From the NCBI GenBank assembly GCA_042570925.1, contig JBHPFX010000002.1, positions 10,930-74,929 on the forward strand: 64,000 bases of DNA. The letters are read 5' to 3'. The notes under the pieces were generated by a model that made no database searches, was not told the origin of the DNA, and saw only the letters and a program-made list of their open reading frames with translations. A program made the translations under genes and the position numbers. This DNA comes from Patescibacteria group bacterium. GTDB lineage: Bacteria; Patescibacteriota; Patescibacteriia; UBA10025. This document shows positions 1 to 10,723 of the stretch, piece by piece (within the stretch, counting starts at the first letter, position 1; each line of letters opens with the position of its first letter).

Positions 1-675
1 GTATTTGTATCATCTGGAGGTGTCCTGGATAAAGCGGATGTAAAATTTCTTGAGTCACATACAATCGCTAAGGCTATAGAGGTAAATAGATTTAATGTTC
101 AAAATTTAACTTCACCGGTAAAAATTAATTTACATGAATTCAAAATGGCAACTGTTATGGATTTATTTAATGATTTTGAATTATTAATAACCGTATTAGG
201 GTTTAATATTTTTGAACCATTAAAAGAGGATGTCCCGAGCATAGCTAGTAAAAAAGGGGAAATGGAAAAGAAAGAAACAGACACTAGAGAATATGACACT
301 ATCATTGGTCCTTCAATAGGTAGTGGGCGAAAAAATGCCTTTGAAAAAGAGAATGCTTGGTGGGCAGTTAGAATAGGAAAAAATAATATTAAAAAATTAA
401 AATATGTTGGACTTTATGAAGCTGCTCCGGTAAGTGCAATTAGAGTTTATGCAAAAATTACGAAAATTGAACCCTATCATGATTCTCCTGGCAAATATAT
501 TATTCATCATGACGGGAATATACATAAATTAGAAAATCCTATTATTTTGGGGAATCATCCTGAATTAGCATTATTTGGACCACGTTATTATAAACTTGGA
601 GATATTATAAGTTCTAAAACAATGGCTGAATTAACAGATAAAGCATTTGGGACCAATTATCAGGAGAGTAAATAA
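1..675 (+). CDS. hypothetical protein, 5' end outside the window
   Basis: Frame 1 is open from nt 1 to TAA 673-675, so the ORF listed from ATG 145 is probably the C-terminal part of a longer protein. No family recognised. Confidence 0.45.
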   Translation, partial: VFVSSGGVLDKADVKFLESHTIAKAIEVNRFNVQNLTSPVKINLHEFKMATVMDLFNDFELLITVLGFNIFEPLKEDVPSIASKKGEMEKKETDTREYDTIIGPSIGSGRKNAFEKENAWWAVRIGKNNIKKLKYVGLYEAAPVSAIRVYAKITKIEPYHDSPGKYIIHHDGNIHKLENPIILGNHPELALFGPRYYKLGDIISSKTMAELTDKAFGTNYQESK

Positions 676-832
676 GGATAAGTATTTTTCTAGCCAATCA
701 TGAAATTTGGGTTGATTTTTTGCTGCATTAAGCGTAAAGTAAGAGCATACTTTTATTAATGCGTGATGTTTATTAATAACCCGTAAATATAAGGAGGCGG
801 GTTTATTTATTTAATAATTAATTAGAAAAACT

Positions 833-1498
833 ATGAAAAAAGTAATGATAACAGGTTTGGTAGTAATTTGCGCGTTGTTTATTACTACAACAAGCGTGAA
901 AGGGTTACAACTTGTTGCAGAAACACTGGATCTCGAAACAGTGTGGAATAATGAAGTTGTACTAAGAGGCGGTAATCCTTTCACGGCCCTTTGGCAAGCC
1001 CTGGCTAATCTGCAGGAGCAAATTGATAACATCCAGCTCATCCCCGGACCAGAGGGACCTCAAGGCCCCCAAGGTGAGACAGGCCCCCAGGGTCCAGCAG
1101 GGGAAGGGTGGGATGAAGAGCGCTTTGTGGCATTAGAAGCTCGAGTTGAATACCTTGAAAGCCTTCACGCCTCAATTCCTCCTAATGTCATTCTTTGGGA
1201 TAATTATCATCCAACCACTGATCTTACAACAGGTGAAATATTAAATATAAAGGATTATTCAAATGCACAGCTTGAATTTGATTGGCAGGGTACACCAGCT
1301 GGGCATACTTGCCAGTATGCGTATACATATTACGACAATAATCAGGTTGAAACATATTACAGCACTTTTCTTTATCTAGATGGCGGTTGCCAAGGAACAG
1401 CAAATATTTCTATACCCGAAGACGTTGTTTTCATGAGGATTGATGCATGGACACCAGCCTGGGGAACACTAAATGGTGTTTTGCATTTGTTTGAGTAA
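833..1498 (+). CDS. secreted protein with a short collagen-like Gly-X-Y repeat
   Basis: N-terminal hydrophobic signal/anchor (MKKVMITGLVVICALFITTTSV). Seven consecutive GXY triplets (GPEGPQGPQGETGPQGPAGEG), then a Cys/Trp/Tyr-rich C-terminal domain. Confidence 0.6.
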   Translation: MKKVMITGLVVICALFITTTSVKGLQLVAETLDLETVWNNEVVLRGGNPFTALWQALANLQEQIDNIQLIPGPEGPQGPQGETGPQGPAGEGWDEERFVALEARVEYLESLHASIPPNVILWDNYHPTTDLTTGEILNIKDYSNAQLEFDWQGTPAGHTCQYAYTYYDNNQVETYYSTFLYLDGGCQGTANISIPEDVVFMRIDAWTPAWGTLNGVLHLFE

Positions 1499-1521
1499 TA
1501 TTAACCTATAACTAAAAAACG

Positions 1522-1551
1522 CTCGAGCTGTAAATTGCTCGGGTGTTTTTT
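1522..1551 (+). terminator. intrinsic terminator after the collagen-like gene
   Basis: CTCGAGC (1522-1528) pairs with GCTCGGG (1537-1543, one G-U), followed by a T-run at 1546-1551. Confidence 0.5.
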
Positions 1552-1659
1552 AATACTAAATGTTAGTAGATTAGTTTTTTTGTTGCGGAATGCAAATTTT
1601 TCAGCTTGACTTTTTTTGGAAAATAACATATTATAAAAGTGTCTTTAACAACCTAACAT

Positions 1660-1766
1660 AATTATCAAGAGTGCAGCGAGGGAACTAGCCCCACAACCTG
1701 CCGGCAACCCTAAGGCAATCCACTTAGAAGGTGCCAATTCTAGCCCGAAAAGGGAAAAGATAAAGG
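1660..1766 (+). promoter_or_regulatory. SAM-I (S-box) riboswitch aptamer
   Basis: Collinear match to S-box core elements: TTATCAAGAG...GAGGGA.CTAGCCC...CC.GGCAACC...AAGGTGCCAATTC.AGC...AGATAA. The P1 halves TTATC/GATAA are at 1662-1666 and 1759-1763. Confidence 0.85.
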
Positions 1767-1793
1767 TCGATTTTTTATTTGTGAAAATAAAAG

Positions 1794-1824
1794 AATCTTT
1801 CTTTTTCCGGGAAAGATTGTTTTA
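1794..1824 (+). terminator. putative riboswitch expression-platform terminator
   Basis: AATCTTTC (1794-1801) pairs with GAAAGATT (1811-1818), followed by GTTTTAT. It lies between the aptamer and ATG 1842. Confidence 0.5.
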
Positions 1825-1841
1825 TCATTAACATTAAAATT

Positions 1842-2252
1842 ATGGGCATTGATGAGTTTAATAAAAAACGTAGTTTTTTTAGCTTTATTCCCGAGCATCT
1901 GCAAATTCAAAACAAACCGGAATTTGACGACTTTCCCTTGAGAGTCATGTTTATGAAATTCAAAATGCAAAACGGAAAAACCATCAGCGGCACGGCACTG
2001 TATGATCCTGATTTGTTATCATACAAACAAGCAGGGGACAAAAGATCAATGGAGTACCGCAATATATATGGCGGTGACGGTCGGCTGATTATTGAATATA
2101 ATATCCTGAAAAAATCATACTATGGTGAAAAATTTGTCAACGGCAAATCTGTTTTGAAAGCGATGGGCCCGAACTGGAAAATATTTTTTATTCACCTGAC
2201 CATGGCGGGGTTAACAAAAGGGGAGCGCTGTATGTTTGAGCAGGTTTTATAA
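1842..2252 (+). CDS. hypothetical protein downstream of the SAM-I riboswitch
   Basis: 136-aa ORF, soluble-looking, no motif recognised. First ORF after the riboswitch and terminator. Confidence 0.55.
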   Translation: MGIDEFNKKRSFFSFIPEHLQIQNKPEFDDFPLRVMFMKFKMQNGKTISGTALYDPDLLSYKQAGDKRSMEYRNIYGGDGRLIIEYNILKKSYYGEKFVNGKSVLKAMGPNWKIFFIHLTMAGLTKGERCMFEQVL

Positions 2253-2287
2253 TTTTTCTTAAAATCCAATTATTTATTGGGGCCTGC

Positions 2288-2327
2288 TTCCACACCAATG
2301 TATATTGGTGTGTGGAGTTGATTTTAT
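2288..2327 (+). terminator. intrinsic terminator
   Basis: CCACACCAAT (2290-2299) pairs with ATTGGTGTGTGG (2304-2315, 2-nt bulge), followed by a T-rich tract. Confidence 0.55.
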
Positions 2328-2381
2328 TGAGTGAAAGTGGGATGATGGGGGTACATGAATGACAATTATGTACACTAAACT

Positions 2382-2882
2382 ATGATAAATAAACAAACTA
2401 AGATTAATACAAAGGATGCGACAAATCGTAGAGCCACATACAACATCACTGGCGTAGCAGGAGAGTATTTTATTGCAGCTGAACTTTCAAGACGGGGATG
2501 GATCGCAACTATGACGTTAAAGAATACTCCAAATATAGACGTAATTGCAACCACTCCTGATGGAGCTAGAACTCTAAATGTCCAAGTTAAAACTAGATCA
2601 GTTGGAAATAGGCAAGGATGGATTTTAAATAAGGGAATAGAGACTATAGTGCCCGGTAATAATTTTTTTATTGCTTTTGTTGATTTAAAAGGAAAAAATG
2701 AAAGGCCAGATTATTTTTTAATTCCAAAAAATTTGTTTGCAAAATGGATGGCAAAACAACATCAAGAATGGTTAGCCACACCAGGACGTCAAGGACGTCC
2801 ACACGTAGACAATCCTATTAGAGCGTTTGATAAGCCACAGTTTGGCGAATTCGATAAATATCATAATAATTGGGATATTTAA
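2382..2882 (+). CDS. small PD-(D/E)XK-like nuclease-fold protein (DUF4365-like)
   Basis: GEYFIAAELSRRGW ... NIDVIATTPDG ... LNVQVKTRS fits a D...(E/Q)xK nuclease core. The stop lies 10 nt before the next gene's ATG. Confidence 0.45.
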   Translation: MINKQTKINTKDATNRRATYNITGVAGEYFIAAELSRRGWIATMTLKNTPNIDVIATTPDGARTLNVQVKTRSVGNRQGWILNKGIETIVPGNNFFIAFVDLKGKNERPDYFLIPKNLFAKWMAKQHQEWLATPGRQGRPHVDNPIRAFDKPQFGEFDKYHNNWDI

Positions 2883-2892
2883 CACAAAAAAC

Positions 2893-4065
2893 ATGACAAA
2901 AAGAATAAAGAGAGTCTGGCATAAAGAGTTTCTAAAATATATGAATTTTATAGTCAAACACTCTAATTACGAAGGAATGCCTGAGCCATATAAGAAAGAT
3001 GGTGACATACGATGGGTAACTACCGTAAAAAGTAAAATTGGACAACAAAGATTAGAATGGTGGGATAAAAAACGTAAGTCATTAGAAATGGAGAAAGGTA
3101 ATGCTTGGATTTCTAAAGTCGCTAGGGCCATTCACCCAACTGGTGAAAAACCTTGTCAAATTTGCGGAAAAACTAAAAGTCTTGATTATATTTATCCAAA
3201 TAAAAGAGGTGGAAAAAGTCCTGGAGCAATGAGTGACGCCCCGGATCGTTATGATGGGTATCATACATATAACAGCTGTTGTAGATCCACACAAGATACT
3301 GGTAGACATAAAGATAATTTAAATCGTTACGGAGAAGATAGGAGGGCGTACGAAAACTGGTCCGACGGAGACTGGAAGGCTGCTAGTTGGTTGATGAAAG
3401 AATTTAATAAGCACAATTTAAGTCCTGATCATATTGGACCAATATCACTTGGCTTTGCTCATAGACCAAAATTTAATCCACTTACGGCAGCAGCTAACTC
3501 GGCAAAAAATAATCGAATGACCTTACAGGATGTTCGGACTCTTATAAATGATGAAAAAAATGGTGAAGCTGTTGTATCTTGGCACTCAAAATATATTTGG
3601 GATAAATTAAAGTATTTAGTAAAAACAGATGTGGATGCGCTAAAGTTGAGTAAAATAATGAGAGAAAATTTGCATTACGTACTAATAACACTTTCAACAA
3701 TATCAGCTGCTGGTTACAACGACTTTCTTGTTAAAACTTTTCTTCATCCTGAATATGCATATTATTTACCTAGAATTATTGGATTTGATCCGAAAAACGG
3801 TACGTATGCAAAGCTAAAGAAAGTTAAAGGTGCTAAAAAACAGTATAAGAACAATGCAAAAAGGTATATCAGAATATCCATTGAGTCACTTAAGCACTAC
3901 AAAGAAAAAAATAATAGAAAAATTAAAATAATGAAATCAAAAGAATATTCGAACGAACTTGATAAAACTATAAGCTCACTCAATAATAAAGATAATAGTC
4001 TAGCAGAAAGACATTTAAAAAACTCGTTAGAGTATTTAGCCGAAGAGTTATTAAAAAGATTTTAA
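2893..4065 (+). CDS. putative restriction endonuclease with an HNH (beta-beta-alpha-Me)-like motif
   Basis: CQICGK and CC Cys pairs. SPDHIGPISLGFAHRPKFNPLTAAANSAKNNRMT reads as an H-N-N motif. Converges on two DNA MTase genes, and the stop codons overlap at 4062-4065. ATG 2893 chosen over 2827 to avoid overlapping the upstream gene. Confidence 0.55.
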   Translation: MTKRIKRVWHKEFLKYMNFIVKHSNYEGMPEPYKKDGDIRWVTTVKSKIGQQRLEWWDKKRKSLEMEKGNAWISKVARAIHPTGEKPCQICGKTKSLDYIYPNKRGGKSPGAMSDAPDRYDGYHTYNSCCRSTQDTGRHKDNLNRYGEDRRAYENWSDGDWKAASWLMKEFNKHNLSPDHIGPISLGFAHRPKFNPLTAAANSAKNNRMTLQDVRTLINDEKNGEAVVSWHSKYIWDKLKYLVKTDVDALKLSKIMRENLHYVLITLSTISAAGYNDFLVKTFLHPEYAYYLPRIIGFDPKNGTYAKLKKVKGAKKQYKNNAKRYIRISIESLKHYKEKNNRKIKIMKSKEYSNELDKTISSLNNKDNSLAERHLKNSLEYLAEELLKRF

Positions 4066-5177
4066 TTTGTAGAGTAGAGTTTAGGTGAGATTGTACCAGC
4101 AAGAAATTCCTGATATCTGTTTTTTGGTTTAAGCTTAACTTTCCTTACATTAATACCTCCGTTGACCTTAATTGATGGCAGGTTTCCTATAGCAGTTTTT
4201 ACACTAGAAAAGTTATTTTCATCACGTATAATTGGCTCAGGAAAGCATTTTTCTGGGTCACCTTTAAGTACGCCAATCATAATCACTCTTTTTCTTTTTT
4301 GTGGAACCCCAAATTGAGCTGTATTCATCTTTTTACCTAGTAATCTATAGCCAAGATCAGAAAAATTATCTTTTATATTTTTATAAGTATTTCCATTATC
4401 ACTTGTTAATACTCCTTCAACATTTTCTATCAAAATTGCCCTGGGTTTAGTCTTTTTCACTATATAAACAAATTCTTTATAGAGAAAATTTCTTGGGTCA
4501 TCAATAAGACGCTTTCCAGCATGAGAAAATCCTTGGCATGGCGGTCCACCTATTACAATGTCAATTTTCTTTTTTCTTATAGTGTTTAATAATACTTTTT
4601 TTATTTGTTTCGTTGTAATATCTCCTTCCAGAAAAAGAGTTTTCTTGTGGTTACGTCTATAAGTTTCGCAGGCAGCTGGAAAATTATCATTGGCTGCTAT
4701 TATTTTATAACCAGCCCACTTGAACCCTAAGCTTAAGCCCCCGGAACCACAAAACAAGTCTAGTACATTATTAGTGTTTGTGACCTTTTTGATCTCCTTA
4801 GCTATATGATAAGCAAGCAATGGCGGGACAGCATTTCCGATTTGTTTAGGTAAGGATGTTTTTGATCCATAGAAAAAATAGTTATCTGGAAATGATTGTA
4901 ATCGTGCAGCTTCTCTAGCACTTATGACTCTATTATCTTTAGGATGAATATATGAGCCATTACCCGGTCTGTTAAAATAAGTGGTTATTGTGTAACTGGG
5001 TTTTGACCACATAAGTCTACCGTATAAAGTGGTTCTGCCGCCATTTTTTCTAATCTGCTCAAGTCTTTTGGAGGGAATACTTTTAGGAATATTTTTCCAG
5101 TTTCCTCCTTCTGGTATCGACTTAACCATTTTTAAGTCATTTGAACTGAGAGAGTACGTTACATGGTTATAAAGCAT
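4062..5177 (-). CDS. DNA (cytosine-5) methyltransferase, circularly permuted motif order
   Basis: N to C order: motif IX (RVISAREAARLQSFPDNY), X (QIGNAVPPLL), I (DLFCGSGGLSLGF), IV (GGPPCQGFSHAGKR), VI (ILIENVEG), VIII (QFGVPQKRKRVIMIG). Confidence 0.85.
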   Translation of the reverse strand: MLYNHVTYSLSSNDLKMVKSIPEGGNWKNIPKSIPSKRLEQIRKNGGRTTLYGRLMWSKPSYTITTYFNRPGNGSYIHPKDNRVISAREAARLQSFPDNYFFYGSKTSLPKQIGNAVPPLLAYHIAKEIKKVTNTNNVLDLFCGSGGLSLGFKWAGYKIIAANDNFPAACETYRRNHKKTLFLEGDITTKQIKKVLLNTIRKKKIDIVIGGPPCQGFSHAGKRLIDDPRNFLYKEFVYIVKKTKPRAILIENVEGVLTSDNGNTYKNIKDNFSDLGYRLLGKKMNTAQFGVPQKRKRVIMIGVLKGDPEKCFPEPIIRDENNFSSVKTAIGNLPSIKVNGGINVRKVKLKPKNRYQEFLAGTISPKLYSTN

Positions 5178-7692
5178 AGTTTTGTGTTTGTTTGATTATA
5201 TAGGTGATTAATTCATTTTGTTTATACTTACTAAAAACATGTTTTATCTCATTTTTTGAAATGTTATATATCTTAAATACTAAAATATTTAACTTACTTA
5301 ATCTTTTGATGTCCGTACTATTAATATTTTTAACTAATTGACAAATATATTCAATATTTTTTTTGTTTGTATGAGCAATCGGGAGATCGTTAAGTTCATA
5401 ATTACTAATATGATTATTAGAGTTAGTCAGATTAAACCTCCAATCAAGTAAGTATGAGTTTAAAAGTCCTAATAGATAATCTAACTTGATATCATCGCCA
5501 ATTTGTAGTTTATTCTCTTTTGAAATAAAATTACATGAGTTGCCTAAAATAAATCCTTTCGGGACTTTTACAAATTTTAATCTTTTATCTGAATTTATAT
5601 TTGAAATTTGTTGACAAACTAATCGCTCCTGTTTAATGTATTGACTTTTACTGCTTAATTTTGCAATAAATTCCTCCTTAATAAATTTGTTACTCTTACT
5701 AAAGTTGAACTCATTAATATTTATTCCCTTTAAAAGCGGATATGAGGTAGCTTCATTTGTTACATATTTTTTATCTAGAGTTAAATCAAGTTCACCGCGT
5801 AAATTATTTATTGATAGAAGTTGTTTAATTTTATTATGTTTGGAGATTTTATTTAATATTTTCCAGCCTATGCTATTTTCAGCAATTATTGGAATTGTTG
5901 ATGAAATATTTATTAAATCATTTATATTGATGTCAATTTTATCATTATGAATTTTATTAATACTATCAACATCATTTACAACTGAGAAATTATCTCCAGA
6001 ATAACTTTTATTAATTCCAAAAAAGCAAAAAGATTGAGTTATGTCAGGAAAGAACTTGTTTTTTTCTGGAATTATATATATATTACTAATTTTGTAGTTA
6101 TAAAAAATTCTCTTCCGAAGTTTTTCGCTTTGAAGGTCGTTTAATAATGTTATTGGAATTAGTAGTCCAATACGACTGTCATCATGTGAGTAGTTTTCAA
6201 TAATTTCTTCTACAAATAGCTTATAATAATTTAAAGTACCTTGGTTATATTTATAGAAATTATTATTTTTAATAAATTGAATAATATTTTTTATTTGTTC
6301 ATGATATCCATTATTTGTTTTTTTGCCATATTTATCACCGTTTGCTTTTAATAGTTTATATGGTGGATTTGTTATAATAATGTCAAATCCATCTTTTACA
6401 TTAAATATATTTCGTGGGTCAATTTTTATTATTTGCGATCCATTGATGTCGAATAATAAATCACCAATGTAATAATTATTATCAACAAGTTTGATTTGAT
6501 AATTATATTTCCTGTAAATATACTTTTTTAAAATGATTTTTAATAATTCTATTGCTTCATCGTCAATGTCGGCACAGTAAATGTTATTCAGCACTTTTTG
6601 GAGATCATGTTGAGAGCAATTCTTATTTATTTTAAACAAATAATCGATATATGCAATTATAAAGATACCGTTTCCTGCACAGGGCTCAAGAAACTTCTTT
6701 TCAAGCAGCTGTTTGAAAGTAAGACCCTGAAGAGATTCAATGATTATTTGCTCTGCAATTTGATAGTCGGTGTAGTAAATACCAAAATGTTTTCTTTCAT
6801 TTGTGTTATAAAGTTTCTTTTTTTCTTTTTCTTTTTGATGGGTTATACCAATAAGTTGAATTAGCTTAATTAAATCAACATGATTATTATTGCTAATTGA
6901 TTTATATATATAATCTTCAAGAGTATTGTTGATCTGGAGTGGCTTTGAAAAGAATGAAAATAAAATATCTAACAGTTGTTGTTTAGAAATACTCTTTAAA
7001 TTAATATTATTATAGATATCAATTAATAGAATATTTTTTGAAATACTAAACCTTTTATTAAGTAATTGATGTTGATTATTTGCTGTCTTATTGTCAAAAT
7101 TCCTAATAATCTTTACTACTAAACCTCTTATTTCAACTTCGTTTCTATAAATTGGCAAAAATGTAGGATTAGCTGGTTGAAGTCTAAATCTATTACCTTC
7201 TCGATACAATTTTTTGAGAGTTGCTTCATTATCATCAATAATTGCGACAACAGTTTGTCCATTATCTGCAATTTTCTGTTGACGGATAATTACAATATCT
7301 CCATCAAAAATTCCTTCTTTTATCATGCTATCGCCTTTAACTCTAAGCGCATAATGATTTCTTAATAAGTTAATTTCTTCTTTAGGAATTGATACGCTAG
7401 AATCGGGTATCTCTATAGCCTCAATTGGTTCTCCGGCAGCTATCGTCCCTTTGATTGCAATTTCTATTAAGTTACTGCCACTTTTGCTTAGCTCAACTCC
7501 TCTTGCTGAATGATTATTTCTAGTCAGAAATCCTTTCGACAATAAAGCTTCAATATGCTGATGTACAGTTGATGGCGCAGATAACTTAAAATGACGGCGT
7601 ATTTCCTCAAAGGTAGGGGAGTAGCCGTTTTCGCTTATGTATTTAGTAAGATAATCGAGTATTTGCTTTTGTCTCTTGGTGGGCGTAGCCAT
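5167..7692 (-). CDS. LexA repressor (wHTH + S24 peptidase) fused to a gamma-class N6-adenine DNA methyltransferase
   Basis: LexA part: wHTH, IAAGEPIEA cleavage context, GDSM Ser and TLKKL Lys. MTase part: LEPCAGNGIF (motif I), IIITNPPY (motif IV) and a TaqI-like C-terminal region (LLGLLNSYLLDWRF). One uninterrupted ORF. ATG 7692 (MATPTKRQ) preferred over 7776. Confidence 0.8.
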   Translation of the reverse strand: MATPTKRQKQILDYLTKYISENGYSPTFEEIRRHFKLSAPSTVHQHIEALLSKGFLTRNNHSARGVELSKSGSNLIEIAIKGTIAAGEPIEAIEIPDSSVSIPKEEINLLRNHYALRVKGDSMIKEGIFDGDIVIIRQQKIADNGQTVVAIIDDNEATLKKLYREGNRFRLQPANPTFLPIYRNEVEIRGLVVKIIRNFDNKTANNQHQLLNKRFSISKNILLIDIYNNINLKSISKQQLLDILFSFFSKPLQINNTLEDYIYKSISNNNHVDLIKLIQLIGITHQKEKEKKKLYNTNERKHFGIYYTDYQIAEQIIIESLQGLTFKQLLEKKFLEPCAGNGIFIIAYIDYLFKINKNCSQHDLQKVLNNIYCADIDDEAIELLKIILKKYIYRKYNYQIKLVDNNYYIGDLLFDINGSQIIKIDPRNIFNVKDGFDIIITNPPYKLLKANGDKYGKKTNNGYHEQIKNIIQFIKNNNFYKYNQGTLNYYKLFVEEIIENYSHDDSRIGLLIPITLLNDLQSEKLRKRIFYNYKISNIYIIPEKNKFFPDITQSFCFFGINKSYSGDNFSVVNDVDSINKIHNDKIDININDLINISSTIPIIAENSIGWKILNKISKHNKIKQLLSINNLRGELDLTLDKKYVTNEATSYPLLKGININEFNFSKSNKFIKEEFIAKLSSKSQYIKQERLVCQQISNINSDKRLKFVKVPKGFILGNSCNFISKENKLQIGDDIKLDYLLGLLNSYLLDWRFNLTNSNNHISNYELNDLPIAHTNKKNIEYICQLVKNINSTDIKRLSKLNILVFKIYNISKNEIKHVFSKYKQNELITYIIKQTQNYAL

Positions 7693-7800
7693 TATATATT
7701 GACAAACTTTAATGGTAATATTACACTTCCAGTATACCGAAAATCTACCGAAGTTGAAATAGGGAGTTATCCACAATATTTAAGATTAATAAATACTGCT

Positions 7801-8505
7801 GTGAGCAACGTTAATCGTACTTCCGGCGATCTAAAAAAAGAGCTAGTAGATCAGCTAGAACTATTAAAAAAATTAGTCGAACTATATGATAAGGGAACTA
7901 TTGTTGCCGCAAAGTCTATTGCGACTACTATTAGAGTACTTGTCCATGACACCACTAACTCACGTTCGCTAGCTGGGCAGTTAGACATGAAGAAGCTACC
8001 ATTTTTTGATACTATTGCTTTTCTTAGGGTTCCTTCAGGTCCAAATATAATCCGAGCCGGAAGTTTTGCAGGACTTTTATATCGTAGTAATAAGGGTCCT
8101 ACCCCAATGCTAGATAGAATTCCAAGAGGTGAAGCTAAATATGTTCCATTTAGTCACTTCTGGAATAGAGTCGTTTTTACAGATAATTATAGCGTCAACT
8201 TTACGCGAAGCGATGTTATACTTGATCTAGCTAATAAGGACGGTGGTGCCCATGTAGACCCAAAGTTAGATGAAAAGTATATCAACATAGCTCGAAAAAA
8301 TTCGATGGGGTGGTTTAGATCTTCCGATGGGAAAAGCTGGTTTGCGGAAGAAGGTGTTATCTATGCTACCGTACGTCAGATTGGCCATGAAATACTACGA
8401 TCATTTGTGCTAGACTATCCAAAAAAGCAGCCGGCGGTGGAACAGGGAATATTAATGAGCGGTCAGGGTATATATATTGAGGTAATAAAGTCCAGGAAGA
8501 AATAA
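7801..8505 (+). CDS. hypothetical protein, start uncertain
   Basis: The ORF is open from 7591, but that start overlaps the divergent LexA-MTase gene. In-frame GTG 7801 or TTG 7699 are alternatives. No family recognised. Confidence 0.4.
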   Translation: MSNVNRTSGDLKKELVDQLELLKKLVELYDKGTIVAAKSIATTIRVLVHDTTNSRSLAGQLDMKKLPFFDTIAFLRVPSGPNIIRAGSFAGLLYRSNKGPTPMLDRIPRGEAKYVPFSHFWNRVVFTDNYSVNFTRSDVILDLANKDGGAHVDPKLDEKYINIARKNSMGWFRSSDGKSWFAEEGVIYATVRQIGHEILRSFVLDYPKKQPAVEQGILMSGQGIYIEVIKSRKK

Positions 8506-8638
8506 CTCTTAGTTGCTTTTCTACCAGTAGCTTTCTCATGGGCTCATTTTCTTATCCCCCAAAAATTACCGCAATGTTTCACAACCTCAATCCCTCCAAA
8601 GTCTAAGAAAATTTACCCTAGTTTATAAATATTAAAAA

Positions 8639-8664
8639 CTCTTCTTTTCAGAAGAGGTTTTTTT
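8639..8664 (+). terminator. intrinsic terminator
   Basis: CTCTTCT (8639-8645) pairs with AGAAGAG (8650-8656), followed by a T-run at 8658-8664. Confidence 0.65.
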
Positions 8665-8709
8665 GAATTATAGCGTTTACAGGAAGAAGGATTCTGCACG
8701 AATGCCAAC

Positions 8710-8820: not shown

Positions 8821-8873
8821 CTGGAGTGCACTGGTATCTGGTGGAAACAGAAGGTTAGTAAAAAGTATACAGA

Positions 8874-9110
8874 ATGACAAAACACATTTCGCTCGACAAT
8901 AAGGAAGTCACGTATACATTGCGCAAGAGTAGACGGGCCCGTAGAATGCGCCTTGCGGTATTTGTCGATGGTTCAGTTGTTGTTACGACGCCGTATAATC
9001 TTCGTGAGAATATTGACAGCTTTGTTGACAACTTAGATTTATTAATGTATACTAAAGTTGTCAACTACCCATATGGATATTCGAAAGCGTATTCTCAAAG
9101 AAATACATAA
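8874..9110 (+). pseudogene. truncated 5' fragment of a DUF45/YgjP-type metallohydrolase gene
   Basis: The first 142 nt duplicate the start of the intact gene at 10154. The last 73 bp (8943-9015 vs 10223-10295) differ at one position, after which the sequences diverge. Confidence 0.7.
9024..9065 (+). promoter_or_regulatory. sigma70-like promoter inside an 11-bp inverted repeat
   Basis: TTGACA (9025-9030), 17-nt spacer, TATACT (9048-9053). GTTGACAACTT (9024-9034) and AAGTTGTCAAC (9055-9065) are perfect inverted repeats. Confidence 0.55.
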
Positions 9111-10107
9111 TACCGGCGAAGTCCGGTCTGCAGATATCGTCCATGAAACCGGCTTTTCTCGCGAATATGTCGGTCGTTTTTTGCGCAAGCTCCAGCAGGA
9201 AGGAAAAATCATGTTAATCGGTAGGGCAAATCAGGCGCGGTATATTTCCACTTCGCCACAGGCGGTGGAAAATGCTAAGCGCAATATCCTGCAAAAACAA
9301 CTGATCCTAAAGAACAAAAACCACGATCTGAGCGAAGATCGTGTACTGGAGAGACTCAAGAGAGAAACAGGTATATGGGTGAAACTCGCCACCCAAGCAT
9401 CCGCTATACTTGACTACGGGTTCACCGAGATGCTCAATAATGCCATTGATCATTCAGGATCGCGATTGATCAGTATACGCCTCGATCGTGAGAAAGATAT
9501 GGTCTTTTTCGAAGTGATTGATGAGGGCGTCGGGATATTCCGAAATATTATGAGGACACGAAAGCTACGTAATGAAGAAGAAGCGATTGAGGAGCTGATG
9601 AAAGGAAAGCAAACAACGATGCCGAAGGCTCATTCCGGAGAAGGAATCTTTTTCACTTCAAAAGCTGCTGACATTTTGATTATCCAGAGTGGAAGCACGA
9701 AGCTAGAGTTCAATAATGTTGTAGGTGATATCTTTGTAAAAAAGAGACAGAACCCCCTCAAAGGTACGCGCGTCTCATTTATGCTCCGACTTCCTACGCG
9801 AAAGTCATTGAACCAGATATTTCGTCGGTACAGTGATAAAACGATGTCATTTTCAAAAACTCAGGTACGTGTCAAAATGTTCATGGCTGGGAGTGAGTAC
9901 ATCTCAAGGTCGCAGGGTAGGAGATTGACAGCTGGTCTTGATAAGTTTAAGACGATTTCCCTTGATTTTAAGGGAGTGACATCAGTCGGTCAGGCTTTTG
10001 TTGACGAGGTATTTCGGGTATTTCAGATGCGATATCCAAAAATTACTATAAAACCGATTAACATGAATAAGGCAGTAACATTCATGATTGAACGAGCGAA
10101 GCGGTAA
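9073..10107 (+). CDS. wHTH + GHKL-type ATPase + STAS-like (DUF4325) domain protein
   Basis: N-terminal wHTH (SADIVHETGFSREYVGRFLRKLQQEGKI). N-box MLNNAIDHSG, G1 box IDEGVGIF, G2-like GEGIFFTSK. C-terminal DFKGVTSVGQAFVDEVFRVF. Confidence 0.6.
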   Translation: MDIRKRILKEIHNTGEVRSADIVHETGFSREYVGRFLRKLQQEGKIMLIGRANQARYISTSPQAVENAKRNILQKQLILKNKNHDLSEDRVLERLKRETGIWVKLATQASAILDYGFTEMLNNAIDHSGSRLISIRLDREKDMVFFEVIDEGVGIFRNIMRTRKLRNEEEAIEELMKGKQTTMPKAHSGEGIFFTSKAADILIIQSGSTKLEFNNVVGDIFVKKRQNPLKGTRVSFMLRLPTRKSLNQIFRRYSDKTMSFSKTQVRVKMFMAGSEYISRSQGRRLTAGLDKFKTISLDFKGVTSVGQAFVDEVFRVFQMRYPKITIKPINMNKAVTFMIERAKR

Positions 10108-10153
10108 TGGACAGGCTGGTGCACGTAGGTGCTATCAGTAAAGATTTCAAAGC

Positions 10154-10723
10154 ATGACAAGAAACATATCCTTCGATAATAAGAATATTTCGTATACATT
10201 ACGCAAGAGTAAACGGGTCCGCAGAATGCGCCTTGCGGTATTTGTCGACGGTTCAGTTGTTGTTACGACGCCGTATAATCTTCGTGAGAATATTGCGGAG
10301 AAATTTATCCGGGAAAAAAGTAGGTGGCTTTTTACAAAATTGGATTATTTTAGACAATTCAAACTCAAACCCGTTGCTCGACATAGTCAGGGGAGCTACT
10401 TAAAAAGTAGAGATGATTCATATAGATTTGTAATAGAGCGTGTTCAACATTTCAATAATGAATATACATATCCTTTTAAACGAGTTAGTATACGAAATCA
10501 AAAAACACGGTGGGGAAGCTGCTCTAAAAAAGGCAATCTTAGCTTTAACTATAAAATCACCTCGTTACCACCACGATTGGCTGATTACATTATCGTCCAT
10601 GAACTATGTCATTTGAAGGAGTTTAATCATTCCAAGAAGTTTTGGAGCTTGGTTGGACAAACCTTTCCGGATTACAAAGAAATAAAGAAAACGCTAAAAC
10701 AGTATAGCTTGAGTTTAGGATAG
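10154..10723 (+). CDS. DUF45/YgjP-family (M48-like) metal-dependent hydrolase
   Basis: WGSCSKKGNLSFNYK and the HExxH motif in IIVHELCHLKEFNHSKKFW. Confidence 0.75.
   Translation: MTRNISFDNKNISYTLRKSKRVRRMRLAVFVDGSVVVTTPYNLRENIAEKFIREKSRWLFTKLDYFRQFKLKPVARHSQGSYLKSRDDSYRFVIERVQHFNNEYTYPFKRVSIRNQKTRWGSCSKKGNLSFNYKITSLPPRLADYIIVHELCHLKEFNHSKKFWSLVGQTFPDYKEIKKTLKQYSLSLG

Follow-up and report, generated by a model that had tools for sequence, protein, structure and literature searches.

A complete LexA repressor joined in frame to a DNA adenine methyltransferase in a Patescibacteria restriction-modification locus

Results

LexA and an m6A methyltransferase share one open reading frame

We analysed a 64,000-nucleotide stretch of DNA from a Patescibacteria group bacterium (contig JBHPFX010000002.1 of assembly GCA_042570925.1, positions 10,930 to 74,929; hereafter the window). 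The subject of this work is a restriction-modification (R-M) locus in the window, in which a gene encoding a LexA repressor fused to an N6-adenine (m6A) DNA methyltransferase (MTase) is followed by a 5-cytosine (m5C) MTase gene and a convergent restriction endonuclease (REase) gene (Table 1). The fusion gene (7692 to 5167, minus strand) is a single unbroken open reading frame (ORF) of 841 codons (translation table 11) that ends in a TAA at 5169-5167. Pfam detected LexA_DNA_bind (PF01726, residues 4-65, E 1e-16), Peptidase_S24 (PF00717, residues 82-193, E 3e-28) and an Eco57I MTase domain (residues 369-548, E 2e-11) in the fusion protein. The NCBIfam lexA equivalog TIGR00498 matched residues 3-199 above its cutoff (186.9 vs. 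110.95 bits). The S24/LexA domain was thus located where the initial annotation of this DNA had placed it (within residues 1-225), and the one-ORF architecture that it had proposed was borne out. The MTase half was matched by NCBIfam met_A_Alw26 (TIGR02987, an m6A MTase family) over residues 301-827, at 322.6 bits and below the curated cutoff of 353.5, and by PADLOC MTase_II. It was 47-54% identical to 119 top matches, many of them named by the Joint Genome Institute (JGI) as members of the Alw26I/Eco31I/Esp3I family. TaqI_C, present in most homologues, gave no Pfam match in the window fusion at E<=0.01; the TaqI-like specificity region was the part of the proposed architecture that was not recovered.

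All of the motifs quoted in the initial annotation were found in the translation (AAGEP at residue 85, GDSM at 120, TLKKL at 158, LEPCAGNG at 335 and TNPPY at 441). Residues A86-G87, S122 and K160 of the fusion align with A84-G85, S119 and K156 of Escherichia coli LexA. The Ala-Gly site and the Ser/Lys dyad are kept in 80-81 of 81 related sequences, 76 of which are fused or run off a contig end. Judged by its sequence, the fusion passes every LexA test. The window gene is a complete LexA joined in frame to a complete m6A MTase, probably of the Alw26I/Eco31I/Esp3I type. It holds the sole LexA/S24 of the window; a second LexA was looked for there and none was found. The protein had already been deposited as MFC1687086.1 ('transcriptional repressor LexA [Patescibacteria group bacterium]') from a 111-kb contig of a metagenome-assembled genome (MAG), under a name that mentions LexA only.

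The junction between the two halves was examined using standalone relatives of the MTase. Ten aligned standalone MTases (612-626 amino acids (aa), 49-54% identity, full length) begin at fusion residues ~220-222. As the LexA profile ends at residue 199, only a 20-aa linker separates two complete proteins; linkers of other fusions are similar (about 10-25 aa). The whole fusion protein contains two methionines (M1 and M123), and from residue 190 to residue 340 none of ATG, GTG and TTG occurs in frame. The MTase half, having no start codon of its own, can be made only as part of the fusion. Total GC content falls from 0.35 to 0.24 at the junction, a step of 0.109 that is larger than in any of 67 other fusions. 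By contrast, GC content at third codon positions (GC3) is almost continuous (0.24 vs. 0.20), indicating that the step is mostly due to amino-acid composition. A frameshift or chimera at the junction was rejected on the basis of the continuous GC3, the missing start codon and the wide recurrence of the architecture (see below); the in-frame fusion, as first annotated, is real, and its catalytic residues are conserved among relatives. GC3 is 0.20-0.26 throughout the block formed by orf2382 (a small ORF next to the REase gene), the REase, m5C and m6A MTase genes and LexA, vs. 0.35-0.52 in sampled host genes. The whole block, LexA included, looks imported as one unit.

LexA-MTase fusions recur in Patescibacteria

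LexA was found paired with an Alw26I-type MTase only once: of 5.8 billion clustered proteins the window protein, from a single MAG contig, is the sole case, and the other 119 top matches to the full protein were all unfused MTases. The LexA half gave a different result. Among its 120 best protein matches (53-64% identity), 65 were longer than 205 aa, and their extensions showed, after ~10-25 linker residues, motifs of several different MTase families, most of them cut by short contigs. Most of the ~65 nearest LexA clusters in a library with a 50% identity threshold were 375-890 aa long; all 42 of the long cluster representatives carried LexA_DNA_bind and Peptidase_S24, and the sole other families detected were DNA MTases.

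At the DNA level, we sampled the 80 closest LexA loci in species-representative genomes, nearly all of them Patescibacteria MAGs. In 67 of these loci the LexA frame continues stop-free (table 11) for 274-427 codons, in 8 it leaves the contig end in frame and in 5 LexA is standalone; the in-frame continuation is thus present in 75 of the 80. Seventy extensions were long enough to cluster, of which 68 fell into six MTase families and two were singletons, and the MTase representatives were all confirmed by Pfam. The extensions form at least nine unrelated groups: m5C (30 loci), PF01555 type (28 loci), two Dam-like groups, a beta-class group, gamma-class groups and singletons including the window. 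The initial annotation knew of no characterised LexA-MTase fusion; the fusion is a common design in Patescibacteria and not a one-off.

Trees were built by neighbour-joining and are rough, sampling was biased toward LexAs like the query, and MAG taxon labels are unreliable. In these trees the fused or standalone status needs 5 changes, compared to ~23 for shuffled labels, while at least 20 changes on 78 taxa are required to account for the 11 types of MTase partner. A different partner class was found in 22 of 81 nearest neighbours. Few changes of status and many changes of partner indicate that the fusion state is stable and that the attached enzyme has been swapped repeatedly. At one locus (L002, 1109-1831) the LexA gene carries a short MTase remnant (a 41-aa Dam-like N-terminus), and other LexA genes have MTase remnants or frameshifted MTase tails (proteins P0170, P0230 and P0153). 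Such remnants and tails indicate that fusions also decay back toward standalone LexA.

The fusion promoter carries a candidate SOS box

The conserved element of the fusion promoter is a direct repeat (TTCGGT-N5-TTCGGT) in the spacer between the -35 and -10 elements. The window copy of this candidate operator with its -10 (TTCGGTAGATTTTCGGTATACT, 7752-7731) is the sole exact match in the window. When repeated 5-mers were scanned for without bias, TTCGG at period 11 stood out in 41 of 79 promoters, and no other signal was comparable. The loose direct-repeat form was present in 75 of 78 related promoters, vs. 73 of 4407 background tiles (1.7%). In metagenome contigs with the exact box and -10, 53 of the 66 callable downstream genes were LexA genes (about 20 standalone and about 30 fused), and the others included a Y-family polymerase gene (IMS domains) and a PHP/Pol III alpha gene read as DnaE2-like. 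Since it precedes standalone lexA, fused lexA and translesion-polymerase genes, the box behaves as an SOS box, and the direct repeat is the candidate SOS box of fused and unfused LexA. LexA boxes built as direct repeats of this 11-bp period are known (GTTC-N7-GTTC, PMC8565304).

The initial annotation had named another candidate operator, the palindrome GTAATATTAC. The palindrome exists, but it was found in 0 of 78 related promoters, and perfect 10-bp palindromes occur in 7-11% of 80-nucleotide (nt) tiles of this AT-rich DNA; it was rejected in favour of the direct repeat. The -10-like octamer GGTATACT (7731-7738), also pointed out before, is present and includes the -10 hexamer, but it is at the same time part of the direct-repeat element. 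At REase promoters the box was found in only 2 of 57 related loci, and there is none upstream of the window REase. Other candidate SOS-box promoters in the window were chance-level matches with two mismatches, all of them inside genes, and ten strict box matches elsewhere in the genome loci look like chance. A generic sigma-70 scan of the window was uninformative (shuffle level).

Upstream of the promoter lies a DnaA-box-like 9-mer (TGTGGATAA). It was present within 150 nt upstream of lexA in 41 of 78 genome loci, vs. 18 of 4407 background tiles. In metagenome loci it accompanied 25 of 29 fused lexA genes, 10 of 20 standalone lexA genes and 1 of 13 box-bearing promoters of other genes. Its orientation and position vary among lexA promoters. 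This 9-mer could link LexA/MTase expression to replication initiation.

Other observations concern the promoters and leaders of this family. GTCAA stands at the expected Shine-Dalgarno place (window 7700-7704, minus strand; within 25 nt upstream of the start) in 12 of 29 and in 23 of 68 leaders of fused lexA, and in 0 of 20 standalone lexA leaders. Read from the other strand the motif is TTGAC(A), which may serve as a divergent or antisense -35, and TTGACA-17-TACACT lies on the plus strand at 7699-7727. At two loci (L095, box 8601-8622, and L112, box 7510-7531, both minus strand), a perfect TTGCATG-TTCGGT-N5-TTCGGTATAAT promoter is followed directly by a gene for a small protein without a Pfam match. 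The two proteins (82 and 94 aa) are homologous and are candidate products of an uncharacterised SOS-regulated gene. Three metagenome contigs with a GC content of 0.63-0.71 (L150, L102 and L115) carry the same box and -10, showing that this box type is not confined to low-GC Patescibacteria; in one high-GC example only 7 nt separate the box from a following Pol III alpha-like (DnaE2-like) gene, which is likely leaderless.

Unfused relatives keep a LexA-type gene before the methyltransferase operon

We sampled seven standalone homologues of the window m6A MTase on long contigs (L203-L209). In all seven, a gene with LexA_DNA_bind and Peptidase_S24 (202-226 aa) stands directly upstream of the MTase operon, co-directional in six (gaps of 10-84 nt) and divergent in one. 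The order of m6A MTase, m5C MTase and convergent REase genes is identical in the seven relatives and in the window. The LexA-type genes belong to at least three sub-clades and are 24-45% identical to the window LexA, which indicates that an S24 repressor was recruited repeatedly to this operon and that the window represents the covalently fused solution. One relative (L206) has a variant direct-repeat box. We considered that the fusion might be a recent collapse of such an adjacent lexA-MTase operon, but this was rejected: the LexA genes are too dissimilar, and most of them use other operators, as expected of convergent partners and not of ancestors.

An HTH_3 gene resembling those of controller proteins (C-proteins) was present upstream of the REase in five of the seven relatives, while the window has no C-protein ORF (>=30 aa) upstream of its REase. 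The initial annotation had suggested that LexA replaces the usual C-protein. This view has to be modified: in the unfused relatives both regulators coexist on different promoters, and the window merely has no C gene.

In two of the seven relatives (L205, 2829-4251; L207, 1848-3282), ThiF/E1-like (DUF6791 and ThiF) and Multi_ubiq genes adjoin cassettes of lexA, two MTase genes, REase and C genes, with BubE also present in L205. The arrangement suggests a location of these R-M units in defence islands, next to systems for ubiquitin-like conjugation.

Neighbouring genes and gene geometry

The end of the fusion gene overlaps the start of the m5C MTase gene by 11 nt (ATGCTTTATAA), and the same 11-nt overlap is found in relatives; the two genes are probably translationally coupled, judging by this overlap. 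The m5C MTase is circularly permuted: QIGNAVPP (motif X region) is N-terminal, before DLFCGSGG (motif I) and GPPCQGFS (motif IV), so that motifs IX-X stand ahead of motif I. The stop codons of the m5C MTase and REase genes overlap in TTTAA (4061-4065). The coordinates confirm both the overlap between the MTase genes and the convergence on a nuclease gene that had been noted initially. No terminator-like site was predicted between the m5C MTase and REase genes, where generic terminator scans stayed at shuffle level. The REase scored 407 bits with PF09665 (cutoff 23) and 381.9 bits with NCBIfam TIGR02986, below the cutoff of 443.85.

Similar geometry was observed in the family. Of 65 complete fusions, 59 are followed by a convergent gene, and for 57 of the 59 the 3' ends either overlap or are no more than 10 nt apart, the commonest single overlap value being 4 nt. 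In the remaining six fusions a second MTase gene comes next on the same strand, as in the window. The convergent partners include MvaI/BcnI-, Bsp6I- and NgoFVII-like enzymes and PD-(D/E)XK nucleases, and belong to REase families wherever they could be classified. Vsr adjoins some m5C fusions and serine recombinases lie near some loci, while the outer flanks of the fusion loci are not conserved.

The small ORF just upstream of the REase gene, orf2382, had no match in Pfam, NCBIfam or PADLOC. It was considered as a homologue of a PDDEXK_5 partner protein at another locus (L006), but the match was weak and C-terminal only (…NWDI), and this was rejected.

Across the whole window, 62 GTCTC/GAGAC sites were observed, compared to 81 ± 9 expected from dinucleotide shuffles (100 of 100 shuffles gave at least 62). 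This mild under-representation is weakly consistent with an active GTCTC-type system, whose specificity may nevertheless differ, given the NCBIfam scores below cutoff.

Table 1. Features of the LexA-MTase locus, with positions counted from the first nucleotide of the window.
Feature	Position	Strand	Evidence and remarks
LexA module, residues 1-199	7096..7692	-	Winged helix-turn-helix (HTH); Pfam, NCBIfam
Cleavage site Ala86-Gly87; Ser122; Lys160	7437-7432; 7329-7327; 7215-7213	-	Mapping to E. coli LexA
Polar linker, 20 aa (DNKTANNQHQLLNKRFSISK)	7036..7095	-	Without stop or start codon
Complete gamma-class m6A MTase module, residues 220-841 and stop	5167..7035	-	Probably Alw26I/Eco31I/Esp3I type
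Candidate LexA (SOS) operator, direct repeat TTCGGT-N5-TTCGGT	7736..7752	-	11-bp period; fills the -35/-10 spacer
-10 hexamer TATACT	7731..7736	-	Overlaps last T of second repeat; aligned with TATAAT in nearly all related promoters
Palindrome GTAATATTAC	7715..7724	.	Present, not conserved
DnaA-box-like 9-mer TGTGGATAA	7767..7775	-	Upstream of promoter; sole copy in the window
Circularly permuted m5C MTase	4062..5177	-	PF00145, E 1e-73, two stretches
Convergent Type IIS REase	2893..4065	+	ATG at 2893, ORF opens with TTG at 2827; PF09665 RE_Alw26IDE, E 2e-121
166-aa ORF (orf2382) just upstream of REase	2382..2882	+	GC3 0.23, like the R-M genes

Other features of the window

Positions 1-8700 of the window form a low-GC island (about 0.31-0.40 vs. 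0.42-0.50 in the rest), whose left boundary lies outside the window. A collagen-like protein with Gly-Pro-X repeats (833-1498) causes a local GC spike in it, and four of its ORFs (145-675, 1842-2252, 2382-2882 and 7591-8505) had no match in the family libraries searched. Further to the right, a 159-nt direct repeat (86% identity; 8857-9015 and 10137-10295) duplicates the 5' end of a gene for a YgjP-like metallopeptidase. The two copies flank a gene (9058-10107) for a protein with HTH, HATPase_c and STAS-like (DUF4325) domains. The arrangement resembles an insertion with target duplication, after which a 78-aa YgjP fragment remained at 8874-9110.

Discussion

A model of damage-responsive autorepression

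We consider the fusion to be, with somewhat better than even confidence, an autorepressing, RecA-cleavable controller of its own MTase operon. The initial annotation had proposed that LexA couples the R-M system to DNA damage; for the MTase operon, a RecA/LexA coupling is the best reading of the conserved catalytic residues and the SOS-type promoter box, and the claim stands in this qualified form. The LexA half, dimerised through its S24 domain, would bind the direct-repeat box in its own -35/-10 spacer and repress the operon of the fusion and the m5C MTase, an autorepression of the kind known from SsoII/EcoRII-type enzymes. MTase autorepression through an N-terminal HTH is an established mode of R-M control (PMC3874152). 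In a naive host there would be no repressor, and the MTase operon would fire first. Its transcription would probably run antisense into the convergent REase gene, a step proposed because that gene overlaps the operon's 3' end without a terminator. RecA filaments on single-stranded DNA (ssDNA), formed in response to genotoxic damage or once under-methylated DNA has been self-restricted, would then induce the LexA half to cut itself at Ala86-Gly87. With the DNA-binding domain lost, the promoter would be derepressed, MTase synthesis would rise and REase expression would possibly fall, so that newly synthesised or repaired unmethylated DNA would be protected.

Several points weigh against this model. 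An operon of separate genes suffices for transcriptional SOS control, and the model accounts only in part for the selection of a protein fusion. A resident LexA with the same box would repress the incoming MTase operon on arrival, which weakens the proposed timing of establishment. The antisense part is proposed from the gene geometry, the pairing of LexA with an Alw26I-type MTase is a singleton from one MAG, and for every member of the family binding, cleavage and regulation are predicted from the sequence.

A more far-reaching version is tentative at best. The fusion may be the only LexA in many Patescibacteria; whenever methylation lagged, breaks made by the cell's own REase would give rise to RecA filaments, and cleavage would raise MTase levels and, through antisense transcription, lower those of the REase, while the DnaA box would tie the MTase to replication initiation. 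If this were true, the SOS master switch would be the R-M antidote enzyme itself, with a built-in autoimmunity sensor, and the loss of the R-M cassette would mean the loss of SOS control.

Alternative explanations

The main rival is a post-translational switch, which we regard as rather doubtful. The intact LexA-MTase would be held at SOS boxes, dimerised or kept inactive, until cleavage stimulated by RecA released the S24-MTase fragment or destabilised it through exposed degrons, changing the methylation capacity within minutes of damage and without new transcription. Such a switch would explain why a covalent fusion was preferred by selection to the lexA-MTase operon that relatives have. The strict conservation of the cleavage residues in fusions, the short linkers and the exclusive choice of DNA MTases as partners fit it as well. 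However, the sequence gives no sign of an inhibited or unstable MTase in either state, and S24 stays attached after cleavage, which means that the MTase would not really be freed; moreover, the conserved operator on the fusion's own promoter already predicts a transcriptional effect. The switch is compatible with the autorepression model and does not exclude it.

Alternatively, the LexA half could be an ordinary SOS repressor on which the R-M antidote hitch-hikes selfishly, the fusion ensuring steady expression and making cassette loss costly, as a deletion would damage or remove lexA, with no adaptive link between damage and methylation. R-M systems are recognised addiction modules (PMC3874152), and the repeated replacement of the MTase partner on a slowly diverging LexA, the unconserved outer flanks, the serine recombinases near some loci and the foreign GC3 of the block of LexA, two MTases and REase in the window would all be expected. 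We nevertheless find this explanation unlikely: unfused relatives keep a LexA-type gene of at least three sub-clades before the MTase operon, pointing to selection for control by an S24 repressor as such, and the phylogenetic coherence of the fused or standalone status fits a functional design that is maintained.

Highly improbable is a third explanation, in which the LexA domain recruits the MTase to SOS boxes or their neighbourhood for epigenetic marking independent of restriction. A DNA-binding domain on a DNA-modifying enzyme is a classic targeting design, and the partners are exclusively DNA MTases. However, nearly all fusions with a callable downstream gene are paired with a convergent gene (of a REase family where classified) or a second MTase gene, so that these MTases must protect all genomic sites. 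Furthermore, at least nine MTase families with different specificities share one common operator without the expected target sites, and in the window promoter (7693-7830) there is no GTCTC/GAGAC.

Least probable of all, and hardly worth retaining, is an assembly chimera or indel that joined separate lexA and MTase genes in the MAG, or a decayed stop that yielded a non-functional read-through product: the pairing is unique, the total-GC step at the junction is exceptional and unfused lexA-MTase arrangements with gaps of 10-24 nt exist in relatives, but GC3 is continuous, the MTase part lacks any start codon, the linker resembles those of other fusions, 67 complete ORFs of this architecture come from different genomes and the dissimilar LexA genes of unfused relatives speak against a recent collapse.

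Comparison with known systems

The closest functional analogues of the fusion under the autorepression model are the autoregulatory MTases M.EcoRII, M.SsoII, M.Ecl18kI, M.ScrFIA and M.MspI, which likewise carry an N-terminal DNA-binding domain on an R-M MTase and have an operator over the MTase's own promoter (PMC3874152). In these enzymes the regulatory part is a short HTH without signal input, whereas here it is a complete LexA of ~200 aa with a self-cleaving S24 domain, and the SOS-type operator is common to lexA and translesion-polymerase genes. RecA and DNA damage should thus be able to lift the repression. The HTH of the fusion is of a family unrelated to the SsoII/EcoRII N-terminal HTH; the fusion would work like this group without being a member of it.

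Compared to canonical LexA, the fusion has the same winged HTH and S24 domains, Ala-Gly site and Ser/Lys dyad, a TIGR00498 score above cutoff and a predicted autoregulatory box, and its direct repeat with an 11-bp period is like that of alphaproteobacterial LexA (GTTC-N7-GTTC). Known LexA proteins stand alone at ~200 aa, whereas the window LexA carries a 620-aa DNA MTase at its C-terminus and lies inside an R-M cassette. With the Alw26I/Eco31I/Esp3I Type IIS systems the locus probably shares the three enzyme families, in the order and with the overlaps seen in the seven sampled relatives. It differs from them in its NCBIfam scores, both of which are below the cutoffs (322.6 < 353.5 and 381.9 < 443.9), so the recognition sequence may not be GTCTC. 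We know of no report of LexA in the characterised prototypes of this family. R-M systems with C-proteins also use a dedicated transcription factor to time MTase and REase expression, but C-proteins are small Xre-type HTH proteins that act mainly on the promoter of the REase and C genes and have no damage input, whereas the LexA module is on the MTase promoter.

Damage-responsive control is also known from other defence systems. CapH/CapP, CapW and other WYL repressors, and CapK/CapS follow the same concept: a signal from DNA damage or ssDNA lifts the repression of an immune operon, which in CapH/CapP happens when the repressor is cleaved proteolytically (bioRxiv 10.1101/2022.04.27.489752; PMC11662680; PMC13373217). 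These regulators are encoded by separate genes, belong to other protein families and switch on a whole immune operon. In the fusion, by contrast, LexA itself would serve as sensor and repressor, in covalent union with the antidote enzyme, and the operator is on the modification side only. The literature examined on these three types of defence regulator does not mention LexA.

The proposed outcome, a lower ratio of restriction to modification during repair, is the same as in the restriction alleviation of Type I R-M systems. There, ClpXP degrades HsdR after DNA damage. The mechanism and the R-M type differ, and the analogy is functional only.

Implications

No description of LexA-MTase fusions or LexA-type R-M controllers was found in the searchable full-text literature, outside which lies the study of the Patescibacteria SOS network by Sanchez-Osuna et al. 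2017 (Environ Microbiol 19:3465), which may report the box, the fusion or both; the design is apparently undescribed. For annotation, the name 'LexA' hides both an MTase and an R-M system. The TTCGGT-N5-TTCGGT box is a directly testable operator, and the many natural LexA-MTase pairings provide a panel for the effects of autocleavage on an attached enzyme.

How REase and MTase activities are kept in balance is a central question of R-M biology, to which C-proteins, short HTH extensions on MTases and antisense RNAs are known answers. A complete self-cleaving SOS repressor in the MTase, or just before it, would be a fourth answer, apparently undescribed and widespread. Patescibacteria and the candidate phyla radiation (CPR) largely lack CRISPR and presumably depend heavily on R-M. 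The design would give Type II systems a direct input from RecA and DNA damage, a counterpart to Type I restriction alleviation.

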